From NCBI GenBank assembly GCA_005889225.1, contig VBEW01000016.1, positions 2,229 through 66,228 of the forward strand: 64,000 nt of DNA, in the 5' to 3' direction. This stretch comes from Chloroflexota bacterium (GTDB lineage Bacteria; Chloroflexota; Dormibacteria; CF-121). Every line of letters starts with the position of its first letter. The first letter of the stretch is position 1. The notes below the pieces were generated by a model that was given only the letters and a program-made list of their open reading frames with translations, had not been told where the DNA came from and made no database searches. Made by a program: the position numbers and the translations under genes. Positions 43,839 through 57,341 of this stretch are shown one piece after another.

Positions 43839-44267
43839 TTACGCGGTCTCGGTGATGCGGTGAACGCGTGGTAACCGCGGCGGCGGAAAGGGCGGCAGGT
43901 CGGTTGGGCCGCGTCGCTCGAGCAGCTCGCGCAGCGCGGCCGTCTCGACGACCAACCGCTCGACGTCGATCGTCATGCAGGCCGGTCGATAGGGCTCCAG
44001 CTTGGCCAGCCCGTGGCCGAGCTTCGCCACCGCGCCGCGCCAGTTGCCGCGGCGCCAGTGGTAGAAGCCAACGCCCACCTGCAGGATGCCCTGGTAGAGG
44101 TAGCGAACCGCGTCCGGCTCCTTGATCCAGATCCCTTCGAGCGTCTCATGCTGTTCAAAGAACTCCTGACGGTTGAACTCCTCGATGCCGCGCAGCAGCG
44201 CCGCCGGAGGTGGATCAGCACAGCGCCCGGTGCGGCGCGGTGCCGTCTTCTTGAACCGCAGGCTCAC
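43839..44267 (-). CDS. DUF309 domain protein
   Basis: EFNRQEFFEQHETLEGIW...YQGILQVGVGFYH block typical of DUF309; start uncertain. Confidence 0.55.
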   Translation of the reverse strand: MSLRFKKTAPRRTGRCADPPPAALLRGIEEFNRQEFFEQHETLEGIWIKEPDAVRYLYQGILQVGVGFYHWRRGNWRGAVAKLGHGLAKLEPYRPACMTIDVERLVVETAALRELLERRGPTDLPPFPPPRLPRVHRITETA

Positions 44268-45484
44268 GCCGTGGCGCCGGTTGCGGTCGACGCCCGGGCC
44301 GAGTCGCCGTCGGGCGACGCCGCGGGCAGCTCCAGATAGAAGGTTGTGCCTTTGCCTTCCAGGCTGTTGGCCCAGGCCCGTCCACCGTGCGCCTCCGCCA
44401 CCCGGCGAAGCAAATAGAGGCCGAGCCCCTGGCCGCGGGCGGGCTGATCTTCTGCCAACGGGCCGAAGAGGTCTTCGAGCCGATCGGCCGACATGCCCGG
44501 GCCGTCATCCTTGACGATCAGCTGGTAACGGTTGGCGCTCGCCTGCCGCAGCCGAAGCTGGACGACGGTCGCGCTGCGCGCGTGCCTGAAGACGTTATGC
44601 AACATCTCGTCAAGCGCCGCCTCCATCAGGGTGGCGTCGCCCCAAACATCGACCTCGGTATCGAGCTGCAGCCGTAGCTCCATGCCGGCGCGAGCCATCC
44701 GGTCGCGGACCCGCTGCGCCGCTGATTGCGCGATCGCTCCCAGCGAGACGCGGACGGTGAAGGCCAGCTCGAGCGGGAGTCGCGACAGGAGCAGGACCTG
44801 GTCGGCGACGCGCATCAGGGTCTCCGACTGGAGGGCGAGGCGCTCCGCCACTAGCGGCATCTGGTCCGCCGGAACCTCGTCGTTGGCGAGCATATCGGCG
44901 TAGTTACGCAGGATCGCCAGCGGTTCCTTGACCTCTTCCGATGCCAGCCGCACCACGGAGACTGGAGTGCGCGGCTGGCCGTTGGTCGACCGCGATTCCG
45001 AATGCAGGCGGGGCGCCAGCAATCCCGCCACGATCAACAGTAGGTCCTGGTCCATCTCGCTAAAGCTGCGCGGGCCCTTGCCGATGACTCCCAGGGTCCC
45101 GGTCACCTCTCCCCGCGCCGGGAAGGACGTTCCAAGGTAACTCACGATCCCCAATTGCTGCCGCATCGCCAGGCTTTTGAAAGGCTGGCGTTTGCTCGCG
45201 TCGCGAATATTGAGCACCCCGCCCTCCATCTCTTCGTCGACTGCCGCAAACGTATCCTCGAGCGCCATTCGAAGTCCGGGGTCGATGGGGGGCCCGCTCT
45301 GAACGGATGCGGCAATGATCTCGAACGAGTGGCCCTCGATCCTGGCGTAAAAGGCGGCTCGCGCATCGAGCGCCTGGTTAAGACAGGTCAGCGCCTGGTC
45401 GATCAGCTCGGGGAGCGGCCTGGCGAGATTGACGACCACCAGGTGGCGGACCAGGCTGAGGGGTGGCTGGCGGTCGGAGCTCAT
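44264..45484 (-). CDS. GAF domain sensor histidine-kinase-like protein lacking the phosphoacceptor His
   Basis: N-terminal GAF; DHp-like SEEVKEPLAILRNYADML (canonical SHELRTPL with His to Glu); HATPase_c N, G1 (DDGPGM), G2 (GLGL) boxes present. Confidence 0.7.
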   Translation of the reverse strand: MSSDRQPPLSLVRHLVVVNLARPLPELIDQALTCLNQALDARAAFYARIEGHSFEIIAASVQSGPPIDPGLRMALEDTFAAVDEEMEGGVLNIRDASKRQPFKSLAMRQQLGIVSYLGTSFPARGEVTGTLGVIGKGPRSFSEMDQDLLLIVAGLLAPRLHSESRSTNGQPRTPVSVVRLASEEVKEPLAILRNYADMLANDEVPADQMPLVAERLALQSETLMRVADQVLLLSRLPLELAFTVRVSLGAIAQSAAQRVRDRMARAGMELRLQLDTEVDVWGDATLMEAALDEMLHNVFRHARSATVVQLRLRQASANRYQLIVKDDGPGMSADRLEDLFGPLAEDQPARGQGLGLYLLRRVAEAHGGRAWANSLEGKGTTFYLELPAASPDGDSARASTATGATA

Positions 45485-50775: not shown

Positions 50776-50863
50776 GCCGTTGCCGCCACCGGCTCTTGGG
50801 GAGGCGCAGGCTGGCGGTGCCGCTGCCGTTTACCTAATTTTCGTTGCTGAGGAGCCCGAAACA

Positions 50864-52282
50864 ATGCTGCTTGTGGAAGTCCGCCGCCTGGATATCGCGC
50901 CGTCCGCCGATCAGTTCTGGACGATCGTCTCCCGCGTCAACGGCCCGGAGTTCATGGGCGTTCTATACCGAGCCCGCGAAGCCATTTTCGACAGTGCCGG
51001 AATCGCCTTCACCATCGACCTGCTGAACAAGTTCCTGCAGTTTGACGTGACAAAGAGTTGGTCCGCCGCCGATGAGGGGGAGCTGTTCATGGGGTCGGCG
51101 CCGGTGGTCGGCTGGTTGCGCGTCCGCCGTCCGGGCTCGGCCACCCTGCGTGAGCTCCGATCGGACGACATTCATTTCATGGAGCTCGAGCACGCTGCCA
51201 AGCCGGCGTTCGTGGAAGTCGGTGTCGCCTATCGCGCCGGCACCGAGAAAGTGCGAACGGACTTCCTCAAGCGCATTCGGACCGCCGCCCAGGAGGCGCT
51301 TGGCCAGGAAGTGGGGACGCCGTCGTCCTGGCCGGTGCTCGCCCCCGTGGGCAGCCATAACTTCGATGCCATCCGCAAGTCCCGCCAGGCATCCTACGAA
51401 GCCAGCGCCGAAGAAAACCAGGCGATGGCCGCGTTTACCACCCCGGAGATTCGGGCACTCATCCGCGACCTCGAGCGAGTTGGCTCGCTGACGGTTTCCG
51501 ACCTCCCCAAAGTCCTGGGCGAGGCGCAGGGGACGGCGGTCGCCGGCAGGCTCGGTGAGCTGCGCAACCTTGGCCTGATCCAGTCCGAGTATGTGATCGT
51601 GTGCTCGCGCACCGGAAATGCCGTGCTCCGCACTGACGATCCGAACAAGCTGCAGAAGATGGCACCCGATTGGATGAAGTGCGCCTGTGGCCGGCCGCTG
51701 AATGAAGAGCGGGTTGACCAGGTGATCGTGCCGACCGACCGCGCCACCGCGCTCAACGACAAGGGTCGCTGGATGACGACGCTGGCGACGGCGATCCTCC
51801 CCAAGCTCGGCATTAGCCGTGAGCAGGTCATCATCGACGCCAGTCCCCAGGGCACGGACATCGTGCTCGACCTCAGCGGTGACCTCGTGCTGGTGGTCCT
51901 GAAAGATCACGAGTTCAACCTGGCCGATGCCTACGCCTTCAACGCCAAGGTCTCACGCATCAAGGCCGCAGAAGGCGTGATCGTCAGCAATGAGGGGCTC
52001 TCCGGCGATGCCAAGAAGCTGGTCCAGGATGAGCTCGGTCCGCAACGCGCCCGGATCACGGATCCGTTCCGGATCACCTTCGTGGAGGGCGTCCAGGCGT
52101 TTGAGCACGACCTCGGCCGGGTCGTGGAACGGCGGCGCCGCCAGTATTTCCTGCGGGCGCTCGGCGACCTGGCGACCATTCAGGGCCTCAACATCGGTCA
52201 GCTCGCGCTGGCGAAGGTCGAAGCGGGCGGCCGCGTCGGCAAAGAAGTCGTGGCGCCGGAGGCCGTTCCCGCCGAGGCGTAG
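50864..52282 (+). CDS. Multi-domain protein: unknown N-domain, wHTH-like segment, Cys-cluster zinc ribbon, C-terminal Mrr-like PD-(D/E)xK nuclease domain
   Basis: C-terminal GTDIVLDLSGDLVLVVLKDHEFNLADAYAFNAKVSRIKAAEGVIVSNEGLSGDAKKL aligns with Mrr_cat restriction-endonuclease core; CSRTGNAV...KCACGRP; start at MLLVEV with GAGGAG SD. Confidence 0.65.
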   Translation: MLLVEVRRLDIAPSADQFWTIVSRVNGPEFMGVLYRAREAIFDSAGIAFTIDLLNKFLQFDVTKSWSAADEGELFMGSAPVVGWLRVRRPGSATLRELRSDDIHFMELEHAAKPAFVEVGVAYRAGTEKVRTDFLKRIRTAAQEALGQEVGTPSSWPVLAPVGSHNFDAIRKSRQASYEASAEENQAMAAFTTPEIRALIRDLERVGSLTVSDLPKVLGEAQGTAVAGRLGELRNLGLIQSEYVIVCSRTGNAVLRTDDPNKLQKMAPDWMKCACGRPLNEERVDQVIVPTDRATALNDKGRWMTTLATAILPKLGISREQVIIDASPQGTDIVLDLSGDLVLVVLKDHEFNLADAYAFNAKVSRIKAAEGVIVSNEGLSGDAKKLVQDELGPQRARITDPFRITFVEGVQAFEHDLGRVVERRRRQYFLRALGDLATIQGLNIGQLALAKVEAGGRVGKEVVAPEAVPAEA

Positions 52283-52306: not shown

Positions 52307-52350
52307 ATCTCCCTCCCCCGTCGGCGGGGGAGGGTCGGGGTGGGGGGTTC
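52307..52350 (+). repeat. G-rich palindromic repeat copy 3 (TCCCTCCCCCG-TCGG-CGGGGGAGGG + TCGGGGTGGGGGG)
   Basis: 25 nt after the stop of the 50864-52282 gene; same element as copies 1 and 2; G5-A-G3-TC-G4-T-G6 fits a G-quadruplex pattern. Confidence 0.65.
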
Positions 52351-52405: not shown

Positions 52406-52597
52406 GTGCGAATCGGGAGTCTTGTCGCCGGGGTCATCGCCATCCTGGTGGGCGCGGTCTGGATCCTGCAGGGCTCGGGCGTGCTCCCCGGGAGCTTCAT
52501 GACCGGCCAGACCATGTGGCTGGTCATTGGCATCGTGGTCGCGGGCCTGGGCCTGGGTCTGGCATTCAACGGACTTCGCCGCCCGGCCAAGCCGTAG
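52406..52597 (+). CDS. Possible small two-TM membrane protein (63 aa)
   Basis: Hydrophobic ORF immediately upstream of the molybdoenzyme gene; weak SD; GTG start. Confidence 0.3.
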   Translation: MRIGSLVAGVIAILVGAVWILQGSGVLPGSFMTGQTMWLVIGIVVAGLGLGLAFNGLRRPAKP

Positions 52598-52601
52598 CCG
52601 A

Positions 52602-54029
52602 TTGAGCCGCCATCGCGCGCTGGTCACCGGGCTGAGCGCGGGCACGCTCGCGCTGGGCGTCGACTACCTGGCCCACGCCTTCGTCAACGTGCCGCTCGCC
52701 CCGGAGCAGGCCGGTTATCTCTTGCTCAAGGTGCTCCCGCTGTCCACGTTCGCGGACTTGCTCAAGACGCTCGGGACGCTGGCCAGGCCGCTCCTGCTCA
52801 TGGGCGCGACCGTCGTGATCATCGCGGCTTATGGCGCGGCCGCCGCGGTGCTTGGGCGTCTGTTGCCCCACTGGACCATCGCGGCGATGACCGGGCTGGT
52901 AGCGCTGGTCGCCGGGGTGGTTGCCCTCATCGCGTTTTCGCCCGGCGACTCCGTGCTAGGCATCGTCGTCGAGGTCGTGCTGTTGGCGGGCATGGTCCCG
53001 CTGGTGGCCGCCGTCCTCACGCAGCTCACCTTGCCGGTCGGCGCCAACGAAGATCGACGGGTTTTGCTCCGCAACCTCTTTTACGGGGCGGTGGGCATCG
53101 CCCTGGTCGGCGTCGGCTACGCCAATGTTCGTCGGTTTGTCACGGCGCTCGCCACCACGGAGGGGAACCGCGCGGATCGCGAGGTGACCAGTGTCAGCGA
53201 CTTCTACGTTGTCTCGAAAAATCTCGGCGGCGACCCGGTCGTCGACGCATCCACCTGGCGCTTGAACCTGCCAACCCGATCCCTGACCTACGACGAATTG
53301 CTGACGCTGCCATCGGATGAGCTGGAGCTAACCCTGGAATGCATCAGCAACGAGGTTGGCGGGACGTTGATCAGCAACGGGATCTGGAAGGGGCCGCGGG
53401 TCAGCGACCTCCTGGCGCTGACGACCGTGCCATCCGACGCGGTCTGGATGCTGATCGAGAGCGCCGACGGCTACACGGAAAGCTTTCCGCTGCGTGACCT
53501 GACGCCGGATCACCGGCTTGTCACGCACCTCAACGGCGCTCCACTGACCTCGCAGCACGGCTTCCCAGCGCGCTTCATCTTTCCCGGCCATTACGGAATG
53601 AAGCAACCGAAATGGGTCACGCGCATCCACTTCTCGGCGACCGACCAGCCCGGCTACTGGGAAAACAACGGCTGGGACGAACGGGCAATCGTCAAGACGA
53701 TGTCGCGCATCGATCGACCGTTCGACGGCGCCGCGCTGGCCGCCGGTGCGGTTCCCATGCGCGGCATTGCGTTCGCCGGCGCCCGCCGGATCAGCGGCGT
53801 CGATGTCAGTTGGGATGGGGGGCGCGCCTGGCATTCGGTCCAGCTGCAACCCGAGTTCTCCGCCTATGCCTGGCGATTCTGGGAGCTGACGCCGACCCTG
53901 CCGGCCGGCCAGTACCGGATCCGGGTCCGGGCCCGGGACGGCGAGGGAACCTTACAGCCCTCCAGATCAACGGCGACGCTGCCGAACGGCGCCGACGGCT
54001 ACCACACGATCACGATCACGGTCGCCTAG
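52602..54029 (+). CDS. Sulfite oxidase-family molybdopterin oxidoreductase (YedY/MsrP-like catalytic domain) with N-terminal 5-TM anchor
   Basis: NGAPLTSQHGFPARFIFPGHYGMKQPKWVTRIHF Oxidored_molyb block plus C-terminal Mo-co dimerisation-like domain; ~5 TM helices N-terminal; TTG start inferred. Confidence 0.7.
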   Translation: MSRHRALVTGLSAGTLALGVDYLAHAFVNVPLAPEQAGYLLLKVLPLSTFADLLKTLGTLARPLLLMGATVVIIAAYGAAAAVLGRLLPHWTIAAMTGLVALVAGVVALIAFSPGDSVLGIVVEVVLLAGMVPLVAAVLTQLTLPVGANEDRRVLLRNLFYGAVGIALVGVGYANVRRFVTALATTEGNRADREVTSVSDFYVVSKNLGGDPVVDASTWRLNLPTRSLTYDELLTLPSDELELTLECISNEVGGTLISNGIWKGPRVSDLLALTTVPSDAVWMLIESADGYTESFPLRDLTPDHRLVTHLNGAPLTSQHGFPARFIFPGHYGMKQPKWVTRIHFSATDQPGYWENNGWDERAIVKTMSRIDRPFDGAALAAGAVPMRGIAFAGARRISGVDVSWDGGRAWHSVQLQPEFSAYAWRFWELTPTLPAGQYRIRVRARDGEGTLQPSRSTATLPNGADGYHTITITVA

Positions 54030-54143
54030 CGCTCTCAGCCACTTCTCAGCGATACGCCGGACACCGTATAACAATCCGCCCCTACCGTAAGGTTGGAGCT
54101 CGCTGGAAACCATGAACGGTCGCGTTGTACGGTCAGGGAGAGG

Positions 54144-54320
54144 AATATGTCCTCGAACGCGACGCTGAGGTGGGCGTCGGTGCTGGGCACGCTGTTGCTG
54201 GCCCTGCTCTTTGGTGGCGTCGTCGCCACGTCGCCCAAGCCTGACCAGGCCCCGCTCCACCCGGCGGTCACGGTGTTGCCGAACGATTCCACGGTGCAGA
54301 GTGAGAGCCATGTCTCCTGA
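54144..54320 (+). CDS. Small secreted protein (58 aa, signal peptide)
   Basis: GGGAGAGGAAT SD before ATG; signal peptide WASVLGTLLLALLFGGVVATS; overlaps apbE start by 11 nt. Confidence 0.45.
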   Translation, partial: NMSSNATLRWASVLGTLLLALLFGGVVATSPKPDQAPLHPAVTVLPNDSTVQSESHVS

Positions 54321-55176
54321 GCTCCAGAGCCGTCACTTCGACGCGCTCGGCTCCACCTGCGAGCTGCTCAGCCTCGGCAGCGGGCAGGCGGCGCTCGAAC
54401 GCTGCGAGCGATGGGTGCGCGACGCCGAGGCGCGCTTCACGCGTTTCCTTCCCGACAGTGAACTCGCGGGGCTGAATGCCGGCGGCGGCCGATATGTTCC
54501 AGTGAGCCCGGAGCTGTTTGCGATGCTCGAAGCTGCGCTCTGGGCATTTGAAGAGAGCAGTGGCCTGGTGAATGCGGCGGTGCTGCCGGCGCTGGTCGCC
54601 GCCGGTTATGACCGGCCATTTCGGCTGGGTCTGGCGGAGCCGGCGCACCTCAACCCACTGCCCATCCCGAGGCTGCCGGACGTGCTGATCCTGGATCAGG
54701 CGACTCGTTCAGCGGCGCTGGCTCCGGCAGCGGCGCTCGACCTTGGCGGAATCGTCAAGGGGGCCCTGGCCGACATCCTTATTGATGAGCTCGGTGAGAA
54801 CGCCGTCTGCAACCTGGGCGGCGACCTCCGCGTCCGCGGCGCCGGTCCCGACGGCGATGGCTGGCACATCGGCCTGTGCGACCACTCAGCGGTTGCGCTC
54901 ACGGACGGAGCGGTCTGCACCAGCGGCGTGACCCGGCGGCGCTGGGGCCAGTCCATGCATCACCTCATCGATCCAGGGACAGGGATGCCGGCCAGGACCG
55001 ACCTCGCCGAGGTCTCGGTGGTGACCGACAGCGCCCTGCGTGGCGAGGTCTACGCCAAGAGCGCCATGCTCCTGGGCGCCGCCGCAGGGATCGCCTTCCT
55101 CGAAGCCCGGGGCGTGCACTACGCCCTGGTGCCCGCCGTCGGCGCCGGAGATGGCATCCTTCCCGCGGCAGCGTGA
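54310..55176 (+). CDS. apbE: FAD:protein FMN transferase (ApbE family)
   Basis: ApbE profile (FDALGSTCEL..., GGIVKGALAD, MHHLIDPGTG); start at MSPELQSRHFDALG. Confidence 0.8.
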   Translation: MSPELQSRHFDALGSTCELLSLGSGQAALERCERWVRDAEARFTRFLPDSELAGLNAGGGRYVPVSPELFAMLEAALWAFEESSGLVNAAVLPALVAAGYDRPFRLGLAEPAHLNPLPIPRLPDVLILDQATRSAALAPAAALDLGGIVKGALADILIDELGENAVCNLGGDLRVRGAGPDGDGWHIGLCDHSAVALTDGAVCTSGVTRRRWGQSMHHLIDPGTGMPARTDLAEVSVVTDSALRGEVYAKSAMLLGAAAGIAFLEARGVHYALVPAVGAGDGILPAAA

Positions 55177-55718
55177 CCCTCGACCAGCTGCTCTGGCTCA
55201 CGTCGCGGGTGGCCGCGCTGACCGCCTTCTTTGTCCTGGCCGCCGCGCTGGTTACGGGCCAGGCGCTGCGAAGCGCGATGTTCGAAGGCGCCATGCGCAA
55301 TCGCGAGCTGTCCAGTCTCCACCGTTTCCTCACGATCTGCTGGGTACCGTTTGTCTTGCTCCACGTCGTGACAATCACCATCGACAGCGTGGCGCGAGTG
55401 AGCCCCATCGACCTCGTCATCCCGTTTCGGGTCGCATACGCCGCCCTGCCGGTCGGGCTGGGCGCCATCGGCTTCGACCTGCTGTTGATCGTCACCGTCA
55501 CCAGTTACCTGCGGCGCCGTCTCGACCCCACTACCTGGCGATGGCTACACCGGCTCTCTTATGTGATGTTCGGGGTATTTGCGTTTCATGCACTCCTGGC
55601 CGGATCAGATTTCGCGCGCCCACTCGTGCTGGCTCCGGCCGCCGGGGTCGTCGCCTTCATTGCGATCGTCAGCCTGGCCCGCCTCGCCTTCGGACGCTGG
55701 GAAACAACCGCCCATTAG
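55173..55718 (+). CDS. Ferric reductase-like transmembrane component (MsrQ/YedZ-like heme-binding membrane protein)
   Basis: ~181 aa, 5-6 TM with conserved His in TM helices (LHRFLTICW, LHVVTIT, FHALLAG); GTG overlapping apbE stop. Confidence 0.65.
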   Translation: MTLDQLLWLTSRVAALTAFFVLAAALVTGQALRSAMFEGAMRNRELSSLHRFLTICWVPFVLLHVVTITIDSVARVSPIDLVIPFRVAYAALPVGLGAIGFDLLLIVTVTSYLRRRLDPTTWRWLHRLSYVMFGVFAFHALLAGSDFARPLVLAPAAGVVAFIAIVSLARLAFGRWETTAH

Positions 55719-55758: not shown

Positions 55759-56097
55759 ATGCGCGTGATGGATGTCGTCAATGAAACGAAAGCGGCCATG
55801 CGGGCGAGTGAGGTTTTCGGGACTCCTTACGAGAAGAACGGGGTAACGATCATTCCTGCGGCCAGGATCGCCGGCGGCGCCGGTGGCGGCGGCGACCAGC
55901 AGGAGCCGCAGGCAGGCGGTGTGGGTTTCGGGGTGTCATCGCGTCCGGTCGGGGCCTTTGTGATCAAGGGCGGCGAGGTCAGCTGGCAGCCGTCCCTGGA
56001 TCTGAACCGAGTGATCTTGATGGGCCAGGTCGTGGCCATCGTGGCTCTGCTCACGGTGCGCGCGGCCATCAAGGCCTGGGCGAAACGGCGCGCGTGA
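55759..56097 (+). CDS. GerW/YtfJ family protein
   Basis: VFGTPYEKNGVTIIPAARIAGGAGGGG...GVGFGVSSRPVGAFVIKGGEVSWQP matches YtfJ/GerW; AGGAGG SD. Confidence 0.65.
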   Translation: MRVMDVVNETKAAMRASEVFGTPYEKNGVTIIPAARIAGGAGGGGDQQEPQAGGVGFGVSSRPVGAFVIKGGEVSWQPSLDLNRVILMGQVVAIVALLTVRAAIKAWAKRRA

Positions 56098-57341
56098 TCC
56101 CGGCGGCGATCGACCTCGACCTGCAGTCGGTCCGGCGGCAGTTTCCCGCGCTCGGGCTGCGGATCGACGGCCGGCCGGTCGTTTACCTGGACAATCCGGC
56201 CGGTACGCAGGTGCCCCAGCGGGTCATCGATCGGACCACCTCCTACTGGCAGACGATGAACGCCAACCAGGGCGGCGTGTTTGCTACCAGCGAGCGCTCG
56301 GACGCCCTGATGCTCGAAGTGCGCGCCGCCGCTGCGGCGTTCGTCAACGCCGATTCGCCGGAGGAGATCGTCTTCGGGCCGAACATGACCACGCTGACGT
56401 TCGCCGTCAGCCGCGCCATCGCGCGCGAACTGCGGGCGGGCGATGAGATCCTCGTCACCCGGCTCGAACACGACGGCAACGTGTCGCCCTGGCTGGCACT
56501 CCAGGAGCAGGGGATCATCGTCCGGTTCGCCGACATCAAGACGCCGGAGTGCACGCTCGACCTCGATGACCTCCGGCGGCAGCTGACGGCGCGGACCCGC
56601 CTGGTCGCCGTGACCCACGCGTCCAATGTGGTTGGGACGATCCCGGATCTTCCGGCGGTGGCGAGCGCCGCTCACGCGGTCGGGGCCTGGATGTGGGTGG
56701 ATGCCGTTCACTACGGTCCTCACGGGTCGATCGACGTGCAGGCGCTCGACTGCGACTTCCTGGTCTGCTCCAGCTACAAGTTCTACGGACCGCACCTCGG
56801 GATCCTCTACGGGCGTCGCGAACTGCTGGAGCGGCTGCGGCCCTACAAGGTCCGGCCGGCCAGCGACGAGCTGCCGAGCCGCTGGGAGACCGGCACCCAG
56901 AACCATGAGAGCCTCGCCGGCCTGCTCGGCGCCTTCGAGTACCTCGCCGGTCTTGGCGGGTCGAAGGTGGTCCGGCGGGAAGCGTTCGAGGCGGCCATGC
57001 AGCGAATCCAGGCGCACGAGCAGGCGCTGGCGGCGCGCCTGCTCGCCGGCCTCGAACTGATTCGAGGGATCCAGATTTTCGGGATCACGGCACCCGATCA
57101 GCTTCACCGCCGCGCCCCCACCGTCTCGCTCATCTGGCCGCCCCACCGGCCGCAGGCGCTCGCGCGCTGGCTGGCCGGCCAGCAAATCTTCACCTGGCAC
57201 GGTGACCACTACGCGCCCGAGCTGATCGCCAGGCTGGGTCTTAGCGATCGTGGCGGCACGCTTCGGATCGGCCCGGCTCACTACAACACCGCGAGCGAGG
57301 TGGATCTCGTTCTCGAAGTGCTGGCCGGTTTCAAAGGCTGA
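56094..57341 (+). CDS. Class V aminotransferase / cysteine desulfurase family PLP-dependent enzyme
   Basis: VVYLDNPAGTQVPQRVID, THASNVVGTIPDLP, PLP-lysine in SSYKFYGP; no SufS-type catalytic Cys near C-terminus. Confidence 0.75.
   Translation: MIPAAIDLDLQSVRRQFPALGLRIDGRPVVYLDNPAGTQVPQRVIDRTTSYWQTMNANQGGVFATSERSDALMLEVRAAAAAFVNADSPEEIVFGPNMTTLTFAVSRAIARELRAGDEILVTRLEHDGNVSPWLALQEQGIIVRFADIKTPECTLDLDDLRRQLTARTRLVAVTHASNVVGTIPDLPAVASAAHAVGAWMWVDAVHYGPHGSIDVQALDCDFLVCSSYKFYGPHLGILYGRRELLERLRPYKVRPASDELPSRWETGTQNHESLAGLLGAFEYLAGLGGSKVVRREAFEAAMQRIQAHEQALAARLLAGLELIRGIQIFGITAPDQLHRRAPTVSLIWPPHRPQALARWLAGQQIFTWHGDHYAPELIARLGLSDRGGTLRIGPAHYNTASEVDLVLEVLAGFKG

Follow-up and report, generated by a model that had tools for sequence, protein, structure and literature searches.

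A twin-arginine-type molybdoenzyme beside a clade-specific ApbE and cytochrome module in Dormibacterota: two adjacent units and a possible cross-membrane electron route

What can an ApbE-type flavin transferase do when its gene lies between those of a membrane-anchored molybdoenzyme and of a ferric-reductase-like membrane protein, and no gene around it encodes a canonical flavin acceptor? The question is raised by a locus of contig VBEW01000016.1 (assembly GCA_005889225.1, a Chloroflexota bacterium), of which a stretch of 64 kb, hereafter the window, was analysed. Five genes follow one another there: mini63, encoding a small two-helix protein; Mo475, a molybdoenzyme of 475 residues; mini57, a second small protein; ApbE; and MsrQl, for MsrQ-like protein. 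An earlier reading, made from the letters alone and here called the sequence-only reading, had taken these five genes as a single system resembling MsrPQ, in which ApbE implied the flavinylation of an extracytoplasmic partner. All its open reading frames (ORFs) are present on the plus strand, and the Pfam matches agree with the identities it gave them; the small protein of 63 residues with two transmembrane (TM) helices is as described, whereas the one announced with 58 residues has 57. The interpretation has nevertheless to be changed on several points.

The reading that we favour, tentatively and at somewhat less than an even chance, is a two-unit model: an outward-facing molybdoenzyme inserted by both the general secretory (Sec) and the twin-arginine (Tat) pathways would be served, in one clade, by a two-haem conduit whose flavin is supplied by ApbE. 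The division of the locus comes from its architecture. Mo475 starts 4 nt past the mini63 stop and the two genes always co-occur; in mini57, ApbE and MsrQl, on the other hand, starts and stops overlap, the ApbE ATG lying within the last mini57 codons and overlapping their stop, and the MsrQl GTG overlapping the stop of ApbE (GTGA). These three genes also have upstream DNA of their own and an uneven distribution. We therefore describe two adjacent units, A (mini63 and Mo475) and B (mini57-ApbE-MsrQl), on the evidence of sequence and synteny. The TTG at 52602 is most likely the true start of Mo475, since its 475-residue product has the same length as the database orthologs, including those catalogued as P0001 and P0002. 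Both small genes keep their length in all species and show a ratio of nonsynonymous to synonymous substitutions (dN/dS) of about 0.2-0.25 each; they are therefore genuine.

The distribution of the units was followed in 80 genome loci drawn from the family alignment and in further metagenome contigs, by means of six-frame ORFs, phmmer and hidden Markov models (HMMs). The five-gene order was found again in many metagenome contigs and in at least 17 genomes distinct at the species level. From the names borne by homologs, the window belongs to Candidatus Dormibacterota, deposited as soil "Chloroflexi" metagenome-assembled genomes (MAGs). All Mo475 orthologs (62-100% identity) keep the succession upstream protein, mini63, Mo475, and mini63 stands beside Mo475 in every orthologous locus (at least 22), those devoid of ApbE included. 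Unit B is restricted to the crown clade of these orthologs. It is absent from locus L023 and from the clade L017/L018/L019, which are basal in a neighbour-joining tree, and also from L020, nested beside the ApbE-positive L012; where it is absent, the next backbone gene comes directly after Mo475. Locus L001 has lost MsrQl and kept mini57 with an intact ApbE of 290 residues. A remnant of this gene is suggested by L001:10582-10697, whose opposite strand still reads like the ~20 initial codons of MsrQl. In the 60 loci that carry paralogs of Mo475 (35-50% identity), HMM and motif searches extending over 8 kb found neither ApbE nor MsrQl, nor any ORF with a bis-haem motif; clustering of the neighbours of these paralogs was swamped by spurious high-GC ORFs and by shared background synteny. 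Contrary to what had been proposed, the five genes thus do not form one obligate system: mini57-ApbE-MsrQl is a clade-specific add-on. A Chloroflexota MAG also has a mini63 homolog (E=5e-13; L070:9579-9821), located ~800 nt downstream from a distant paralog of Mo475, and mini63-like proteins may be a wider partner family of such molybdoenzymes.

The DNA ahead of unit B is conserved in its own right. The 117-nt spacer contains a TCTCAG-N5-TCTCAG direct repeat (54033-54049), the near-palindrome CTACCGTAAGGTT (54082-54094), the block CGTTGTA and a strong ribosome-binding site, AGGGAGAGGAA; these blocks are kept across 13 species and each is unique in the window. The spacer is a probable promoter/operator of unit B, with a putative binding site for a regulator. 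A scan for sigma-70 promoters and terminators was uninformative in this high-GC organism. A riboswitch or another regulatory RNA was considered and dropped: the Rfam search of the region gave no match at E<=1 and the intergenic RNA folds no better than shuffled sequence. At the nucleotide level the first 11 codons of mini57 are near-invariant across species, and its Shine-Dalgarno sequence, GAGAGG, is able to pair with UCCUC in codons 2-3 (54136-54155), which suggests translational control at the mini57 start.

Mo475 belongs to the sulfite-oxidase superfamily, as indicated by two Pfam domains above threshold, PF00174 (Oxidored_molyb, 116 bits for a cutoff of 24) and PF03404 (Mo-co_dimer, 37 bits for 22.7), and by Cys247, invariant in 31/31 sequences of an alignment of diverse family members. 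About five hydrophobic segments precede the Mo domain. Immediately ahead of the last of these helices R152 is invariant and R153 at least 90% conserved; among the five helices, TM5 itself has the lowest mean Kyte-Doolittle hydropathy, and the positively charged NVRRF comes right after it. These features are those published for the protein Sco3746, for which it was shown experimentally that Sec inserts TM1-4 and Tat inserts TM5 together with the folded molybdenum cofactor (MoCo) domain (Tooke et al. 2017, PMC5449189). Both proteins have five TM helices, of which the weakly hydrophobic fifth is preceded by a twin-arginine and followed by positive charges, and a C-terminal MoCo domain; the class was also reported in Chloroflexi (PMC5449189). 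The invariant arginine pair and this precedent together imply that the Mo domain faces outward, as the sequence-only reading had supposed, and not the cytoplasm. By analogy, and through a comparison of published features rather than of the sequences directly, Mo475 would be a Sec/Tat dual-inserted molybdoprotein of the Sco3746 class, with a predicted Tat-dependent export.

The anchor nevertheless separates Mo475 from that class. Sco3746 homologs have conserved histidines in TM2-4, predicted to hold two b haems in a fused MsrQ-like anchor, whereas no column of the Mo475 anchor contains five or more histidines among the 31 sequences. The lack of conserved histidines implies that the anchor carries no haem, in agreement with the lack of bis-His ligands noticed in the sequence-only reading. 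That the anchor might be a degenerate MsrQ was also envisaged and dropped, hhalign detecting no similarity with either MsrQl or MsrQ. Mo475-type proteins form a large family, with 886 clusters at 50% identity recovered by an exhaustive search at E<1e-30, most of them of 480-560 residues. Haem-less, Sec/Tat-inserted molybdoenzymes are thus numerous, and an adjacent redox partner is usually absent.

The catalytic domain points away from MsrP. It carries a dimerisation domain and matches SoxC, SorT, SorA and sulfite oxidase best, yet all NCBIfam equivalogs remain below their cutoff: 93 bits against 420 for SoxC, 76 against 600 for SorA, 88 against 570 for SorT. For MsrP the score is 24.6 bits against 207, and the identity with the E. 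coli protein is 22% over 212 residues. From these scores Mo475 is an equivalog of none of SoxC, SorA, SorT and MsrP, and the proposed resemblance with MsrPQ does not extend to the Mo domain, which is of the sulfite oxidase/SorA/SorT/SoxC type. The loop that we take to be CAGNRR in chicken sulfite oxidase reads CISNEV in Mo475. Around residues 300-306 (53500-53520), the orthogroup of the window has V-T-H-L-N-G where the wider family has A-Y-E-M-N-G, whose Tyr aligns with Y322 of chicken sulfite oxidase. This difference suggests that the clade bearing mini63 and unit B has a modified active site.

The membrane protein of unit B had been likened to MsrQ/YedZ. Its match with PF01794 (Ferric_reduct) is borderline, 28.4 bits for a cutoff of 28; many of its orthologs have a precomputed PF01794 match and bear the name YedZ/MsrQ at the Joint Genome Institute (JGI). 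Four histidines are invariant: H50 and H64, 14 residues apart (H-x13-H), and H126 and H139, 13 residues apart (H-x12-H), on two helices. These spacings equal those of His101/115 and His209/222 of NOX2, the canonical ligands of the inner and outer haems in the ferric reductase domain (FRD) superfamily (PMC3591440). H50 and H126 are thus predicted to ligate an inner haem, and H64 and H139 an outer one. By contrast YedZ/MsrQ and STEAP are defined by an Arg in place of the first canonical His (PMC3591440), and in E. coli MsrQ the site of this Arg77 binds flavin mononucleotide (FMN) instead of the inner haem (PMC12525009). His50 of MsrQl falls at the position of Arg77, with R51 matching Arg78, in registers on which BLAST and hhalign agree. 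The similarity itself is not significant (hhalign E=0.076, BLAST E=0.14-0.44), the His pair of TM5 being in register, and the NCBIfam model of MsrQ gives 16 bits for a cutoff of 130.

With a His at the signature Arg position and all four NOX-type histidines kept, MsrQl is therefore better described as a two-haem short FRD protein, of the short bacterial FRE type, than as a flavocytochrome of the MsrQ type. It shares with NOX and with the short bacterial FREs (Zhang et al. 2013) the four haem histidines in the same two motifs on two helices; in these proteins the inner and outer haems carry electrons from a cytosolic flavin to an acceptor outside. It differs from NOX by the lack of a fused FAD/NADPH dehydrogenase domain (flavin adenine dinucleotide; reduced nicotinamide adenine dinucleotide phosphate), by its five helices only, in 181 residues, and by a flavin that would come from a separate polypeptide. 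A topology N-out/C-in with five helices is predicted from the positive-inside rule and the FRD core. By analogy, a four-His FRD protein such as MsrQl would need a separate flavin donor on the cytoplasmic side.

Could ApbE provide this flavin? The protein matches PF02424 with 153 bits. None of the orthologs among the at least 120 matches listed has a signal peptide, a lipobox, a TM segment or a hydrophobic N-terminus; their length is 286-292 residues, apart from one fragment of 270 and one record of 302, and all the 25 that were aligned start with MS(P/R)E. The alignment shows that the lipoprotein signal of about 30 residues of E. coli Ftp (MG1655) is absent, and the in-frame sequence upstream of the start is Arg-rich rather than hydrophobic. 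ApbE is therefore predicted to be cytoplasmic. This contradicts the idea that its presence implies extracytoplasmic flavinylation, which is not supported. Cytosolic ApbEs do exist, for example that of Klebsiella pneumoniae, which serves a soluble fumarate reductase (PMC12052999); like it, the present enzyme has no signal peptide and would act in the cytoplasm. The likeness stops there: the Klebsiella target has an FMN_bind domain and a Dxx[ST]GA[ST] motif, of which none was found nearby here, and in our case the Mg2+ ligands differ and the partners sit in the membrane.

As for the active site, S205 and H218 are invariant and align with S240 and H256 of T. pallidum Ftp, H218 corresponding to the catalytic His (H257 in V. 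cholerae). Besides, the positions of the Mg2+ ligands are invariantly E246 and K250 in the family, where the E. coli, T. pallidum and Listeria enzymes have D and T, and R209 replaces E244. In T. pallidum Ftp, D284A and T288A abolish activity (PMC4436053). From the conserved residues a transferase activity is plausible, and Lys250 may stand in for the catalytic Lys that canonical substrates supply.

The search for acceptor motifs covered all ORFs of the 64-kb window; of each related locus, 5-17 kb were compared. In the cluster, the motif scan found no Dxx[ST]GA[ST], in agreement with the sequence-only reading. The few [ST]GA[ST] matches in real genes of the window are close to what is expected by chance; they fall in an FtsH-like and a trypsin-like protease and at the C-terminal tail of a GAF histidine kinase. 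The latter, a GAF-HisKA-HATPase protein (44264-45484, minus strand), ends in ...ASTATGATA, so that TGAT lies one residue from the C-terminus of a cytoplasmic protein; about three such motifs are expected in the window from a rough estimate with residue frequencies, and this one is probably a chance match.

Two other candidates were discarded. SFMTGQT of mini63, put forward earlier as the closest sequence, ends with a Thr replaced by R, S, Q or H in most orthologs; its loop is predicted outside the membrane, and mini63 also occurs in loci without ApbE. Neither is Mo475 a likely target, as no residue separates the orthologs with ApbE from those without. What is left is the N-terminal tail of mini57, the only feature of the cluster that fits the acceptor of a cytoplasmic enzyme. 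It reads M-S-S-[N/I]-[A/T]-T-L-R-W, then A-S, with S3 and T6 invariant in 18 sequences, and the outer segment of the protein contains a conserved APLHP motif. Within its S-N-A-T sequence, Thr6 is the best candidate. According to published results, flavin tags of seven residues are most efficient when placed at a protein terminus, flavinylation does not require the Asp of the motif, and a Gly-to-Ala change keeps ~50% of it; a degenerate, terminal site on mini57 is therefore conceivable. Besides, mini57 is always paired with ApbE, even where MsrQl was lost.

Gene content, conserved residues, the missing export signal and the phylogenetic distribution are observed, whereas topology, haem and flavin content, the identity of the acceptor, the direction in which electrons flow and the coupling with Mo475 are inferred. 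Put together, the favoured two-unit model would run as follows. Sec would insert TM1-4 of Mo475, and Tat would recognise the internal twin-arginine and insert TM5 with the pre-folded, cofactor-loaded domain. Unit B would be a compact module, coupled at the level of translation, that one clade of Dormibacterota acquired. Its two-haem cytochrome, MsrQl, would carry electrons across the membrane and, like the NOX core, require a flavin on the cytoplasmic side; ApbE, devoid of signal, would act in the cytoplasm and most likely attach this flavin covalently to a partner, probably mini57 at Thr6. The module would thus link a cytoplasmic reductant to the outward-facing Mo enzyme, following the logic of MsrPQ with different parts and as an optional partnership. 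A narrower version, in which FMN is placed covalently on Thr6 of a cytoplasmic N-terminal tail and mini57 docks on MsrQl to form a three-polypeptide, NOX-like conduit (flavin, inner haem, outer haem) feeding the Mo enzyme, is a long shot; if true, it would be the first case of an ApbE substrate associated with the membrane on the cytoplasmic side, and the first of a micro-protein carrying flavin.

Several observations weigh against the two-unit model. No canonical acceptor was found, and SNAT or SITT depart from the motif at its Gly. Nucleotide conservation also extends over the 5' end of mini57, which can pair with its own Shine-Dalgarno, and the conservation of the residues may therefore be driven by the RNA; mini57 could also be a signal peptide cleaved between VVA and T, in which case the tail would be discarded. 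Given the extent of DNA covered, the acceptor may lie elsewhere. The change of T to K at a Mg2+ ligand, together with the inactivity of T288A in T. pallidum Ftp, makes the transferase activity uncertain. No residue of Mo475 distinguishes the ApbE-positive from the ApbE-negative orthologs, and the Mo enzyme clearly functions without unit B in other lineages. In every context examined unit B is found at a Mo475 locus, which is consistent with a functional link and equally with vertical inheritance; among the best 120 matches listed for ApbE and for MsrQl all are orthologs from the same clade, and adjacency in a single clade may only mirror their common descent. Finally, the AlphaFold2 models, with a mean predicted local distance difference test (pLDDT) of 51 for MsrQl and 40 for ApbE, are too poor to examine interfaces, because the alignments held close orthologs only.

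The same observations can be read as those of a unit B without functional tie to the Mo enzyme: a self-sufficient reductase working across the membrane, for example on ferric iron or on some other acceptor outside the cell, which was inserted downstream of Mo475 in one clade. We consider this rather unlikely, though it accounts for the conserved upstream blocks and the strong ribosome-binding site of the module, for its presence or absence without any change in Mo475 and for its lack in all paralogs and in the basal orthologs; besides, Meheust et al. (PMC8238504) tie MsrQ-like clusters to iron reduction, which was proposed for the actinobacterial ones. It does not account for the position of the module: in every context examined, MsrQl homologs lie directly downstream of Mo475 and on the same strand. 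There is also no VIT1 iron transporter or other acceptor gene nearby, and the haem-less Mo475 would be left without any other visible redox partner. A link between unit B and the Mo enzyme is plausible, and optional. Less likely still is that ApbE is not a transferase and nothing is covalently flavinylated, the protein being a cytoplasmic FAD/FMN-binding partner. It could then donate flavin or act as its chaperone, be an FAD pyrophosphatase, or serve as the redox-active "dehydrogenase" face docked under the inner haem of MsrQl. The two Ftp residues D284 and T288, essential in T. pallidum (PMC4436053), are here invariantly E and K, R209 stands where E244 is expected, and acceptor motifs are lacking in the cluster and at chance level in the genes of the window, all of which would suit such a role, as would the exposed isoalloxazine ring of the FAD bound by ApbE (PMC12052999). 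At the opposite, the proposed triad S205, H218 and acidic E246 is retained, and such a role would give no reason for the tight pairing with mini57. We know of no member of the ApbE family that is a redox protein.

The scheme of the sequence-only reading, where an ApbE outside the membrane flavinylates an extracytoplasmic partner (a loop of a mini-protein or the Mo protein) as the electron-entry module of a periplasmic reductase, now appears very improbable. Most characterised ApbEs are indeed extracytoplasmic lipoproteins (PMC8238504, PMC12052999), and mini57, which resembles a signal or an anchor, directly precedes and overlaps ApbE. A split or frameshifted ApbE anchored by its signal was considered on this account and rejected, the two genes being in separate frames in all species with a junction, TCC TGA, devoid of slippery site. 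This scheme is further countered by the absence of export features in the listed ApbE orthologs and by the fate of its two targets, mini63 with its variable final Thr and its occurrence without ApbE, and Mo475, of which no residue tracks ApbE. Its overall logic, a membrane cytochrome beside an outward-facing Mo enzyme, holds.

Returning to the two-unit model, how does it compare with known systems? With E. coli MsrPQ (YedYZ) the locus shares a sulfite-oxidase-superfamily Mo enzyme that faces the periplasm and depends on Tat, in Mo475 by prediction, beside an FRD membrane cytochrome, and electrons that would come from the cytoplasmic side through a flavin at the inner face. Differences are as marked: MsrP is soluble and without dimerisation domain; MsrQ has 6 TM helices, one haem and a non-covalent FMN, with Arg77 in the place of His50; no ApbE and no mini-protein accompany them, whereas two genes separate here the Mo and cytochrome genes. 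The "MsrQ-like" clusters of Meheust et al. 2021 (PMC8238504) have a PF01794 protein within a few genes of apbE, as is the case here, and were also proposed to transfer electrons across the membrane. Their definition, however, requires that ApbE, an FMN_bind or a DUF protein bear a signal peptide or a lipidation site, and as a rule they include an FMN_bind gene and a cytochrome with a fused NAD-binding domain. In our cluster, which adjoins a Mo enzyme, ApbE is devoid of export signal and genes of the FMN_bind, DUF2271 or DUF3570 type are absent; it lies outside this definition because export signal, FMN_bind and NAD-binding domain are all lacking.

Its parts thus all come from known families, and their combination appears new and confined, among the relatives seen, to one clade of Dormibacterota. 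About 4% of the ApbE-encoding genomes are without identified substrate, and the large-scale surveys deliberately excluded ApbEs without export signals (PMC8238504). The cluster offers a compact, three-gene test case, either for a flavinylation associated with the membrane on its cytoplasmic side or for an ApbE that is not a transferase. As Dormibacterota are an uncultured phylum, dominant in soil, any defined respiratory or repair module would be useful there.

Table 1. Position in the window of the genes, residues and DNA elements discussed.
Feature	Position	Strand	Description
GC-rich perfect 10-bp hairpin CCCUCCCCCG-UCGG-CGGGGGAGGG	52310-52335	+	RNA fold
mini63	52406-52597	+	63 aa, two TM helices, predicted N-in/C-in
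Mo475	52602-54029	+	475 aa, polytopic molybdoenzyme, TTG start
R152-R153 twin-arginine pair of Mo475	53055-53060	+	after TM1-4, before TM5
Mo-ligand Cys247 of Mo475	53340-53342	+	invariant
Mo475/mini57 spacer	54030-54146	+	conserved intergenic DNA
mini57	54147-54320	+	57 aa, one hydrophobic span
T6 codon of mini57	54162-54164	+	invariant residue
ApbE	54310-55176	+	288 aa, PF02424
E246 / K250 codons of ApbE	55045-55047 / 55057-55059	+	Mg2+-ligand positions
MsrQl	55173-55718	+	181 aa, five-TM ferric-reductase-domain protein, GTG start
H50 / H64 / H126 / H139 codons of MsrQl	55320-55322 / 55362-55364 / 55548-55550 / 55587-55589	+	invariant His

The surroundings of the two units are themselves conserved. 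Upstream, an ORF of 500 residues (50780-52282, plus strand; 473-475 residues in relatives) adjoins mini63-Mo475 in every orthologous locus, with no match in Pfam or NCBIfam. The GC-rich hairpin listed in Table 1 stands directly 3' of this ORF and is likely a transcript boundary ahead of unit A. Directly downstream of MsrQl come a YtfJ/GerW-like protein with a C-terminal TM helix (55759-56097, plus strand) and, overlapping it, a VC1184-type cysteine-desulfurase-like protein (56094-57341, plus strand; TIGR01976, 477 bits), both part of the conserved backbone. In relatives a GNAT acetyltransferase gene, with or without a methyltransferase gene, is inserted between MsrQl and YtfJ.

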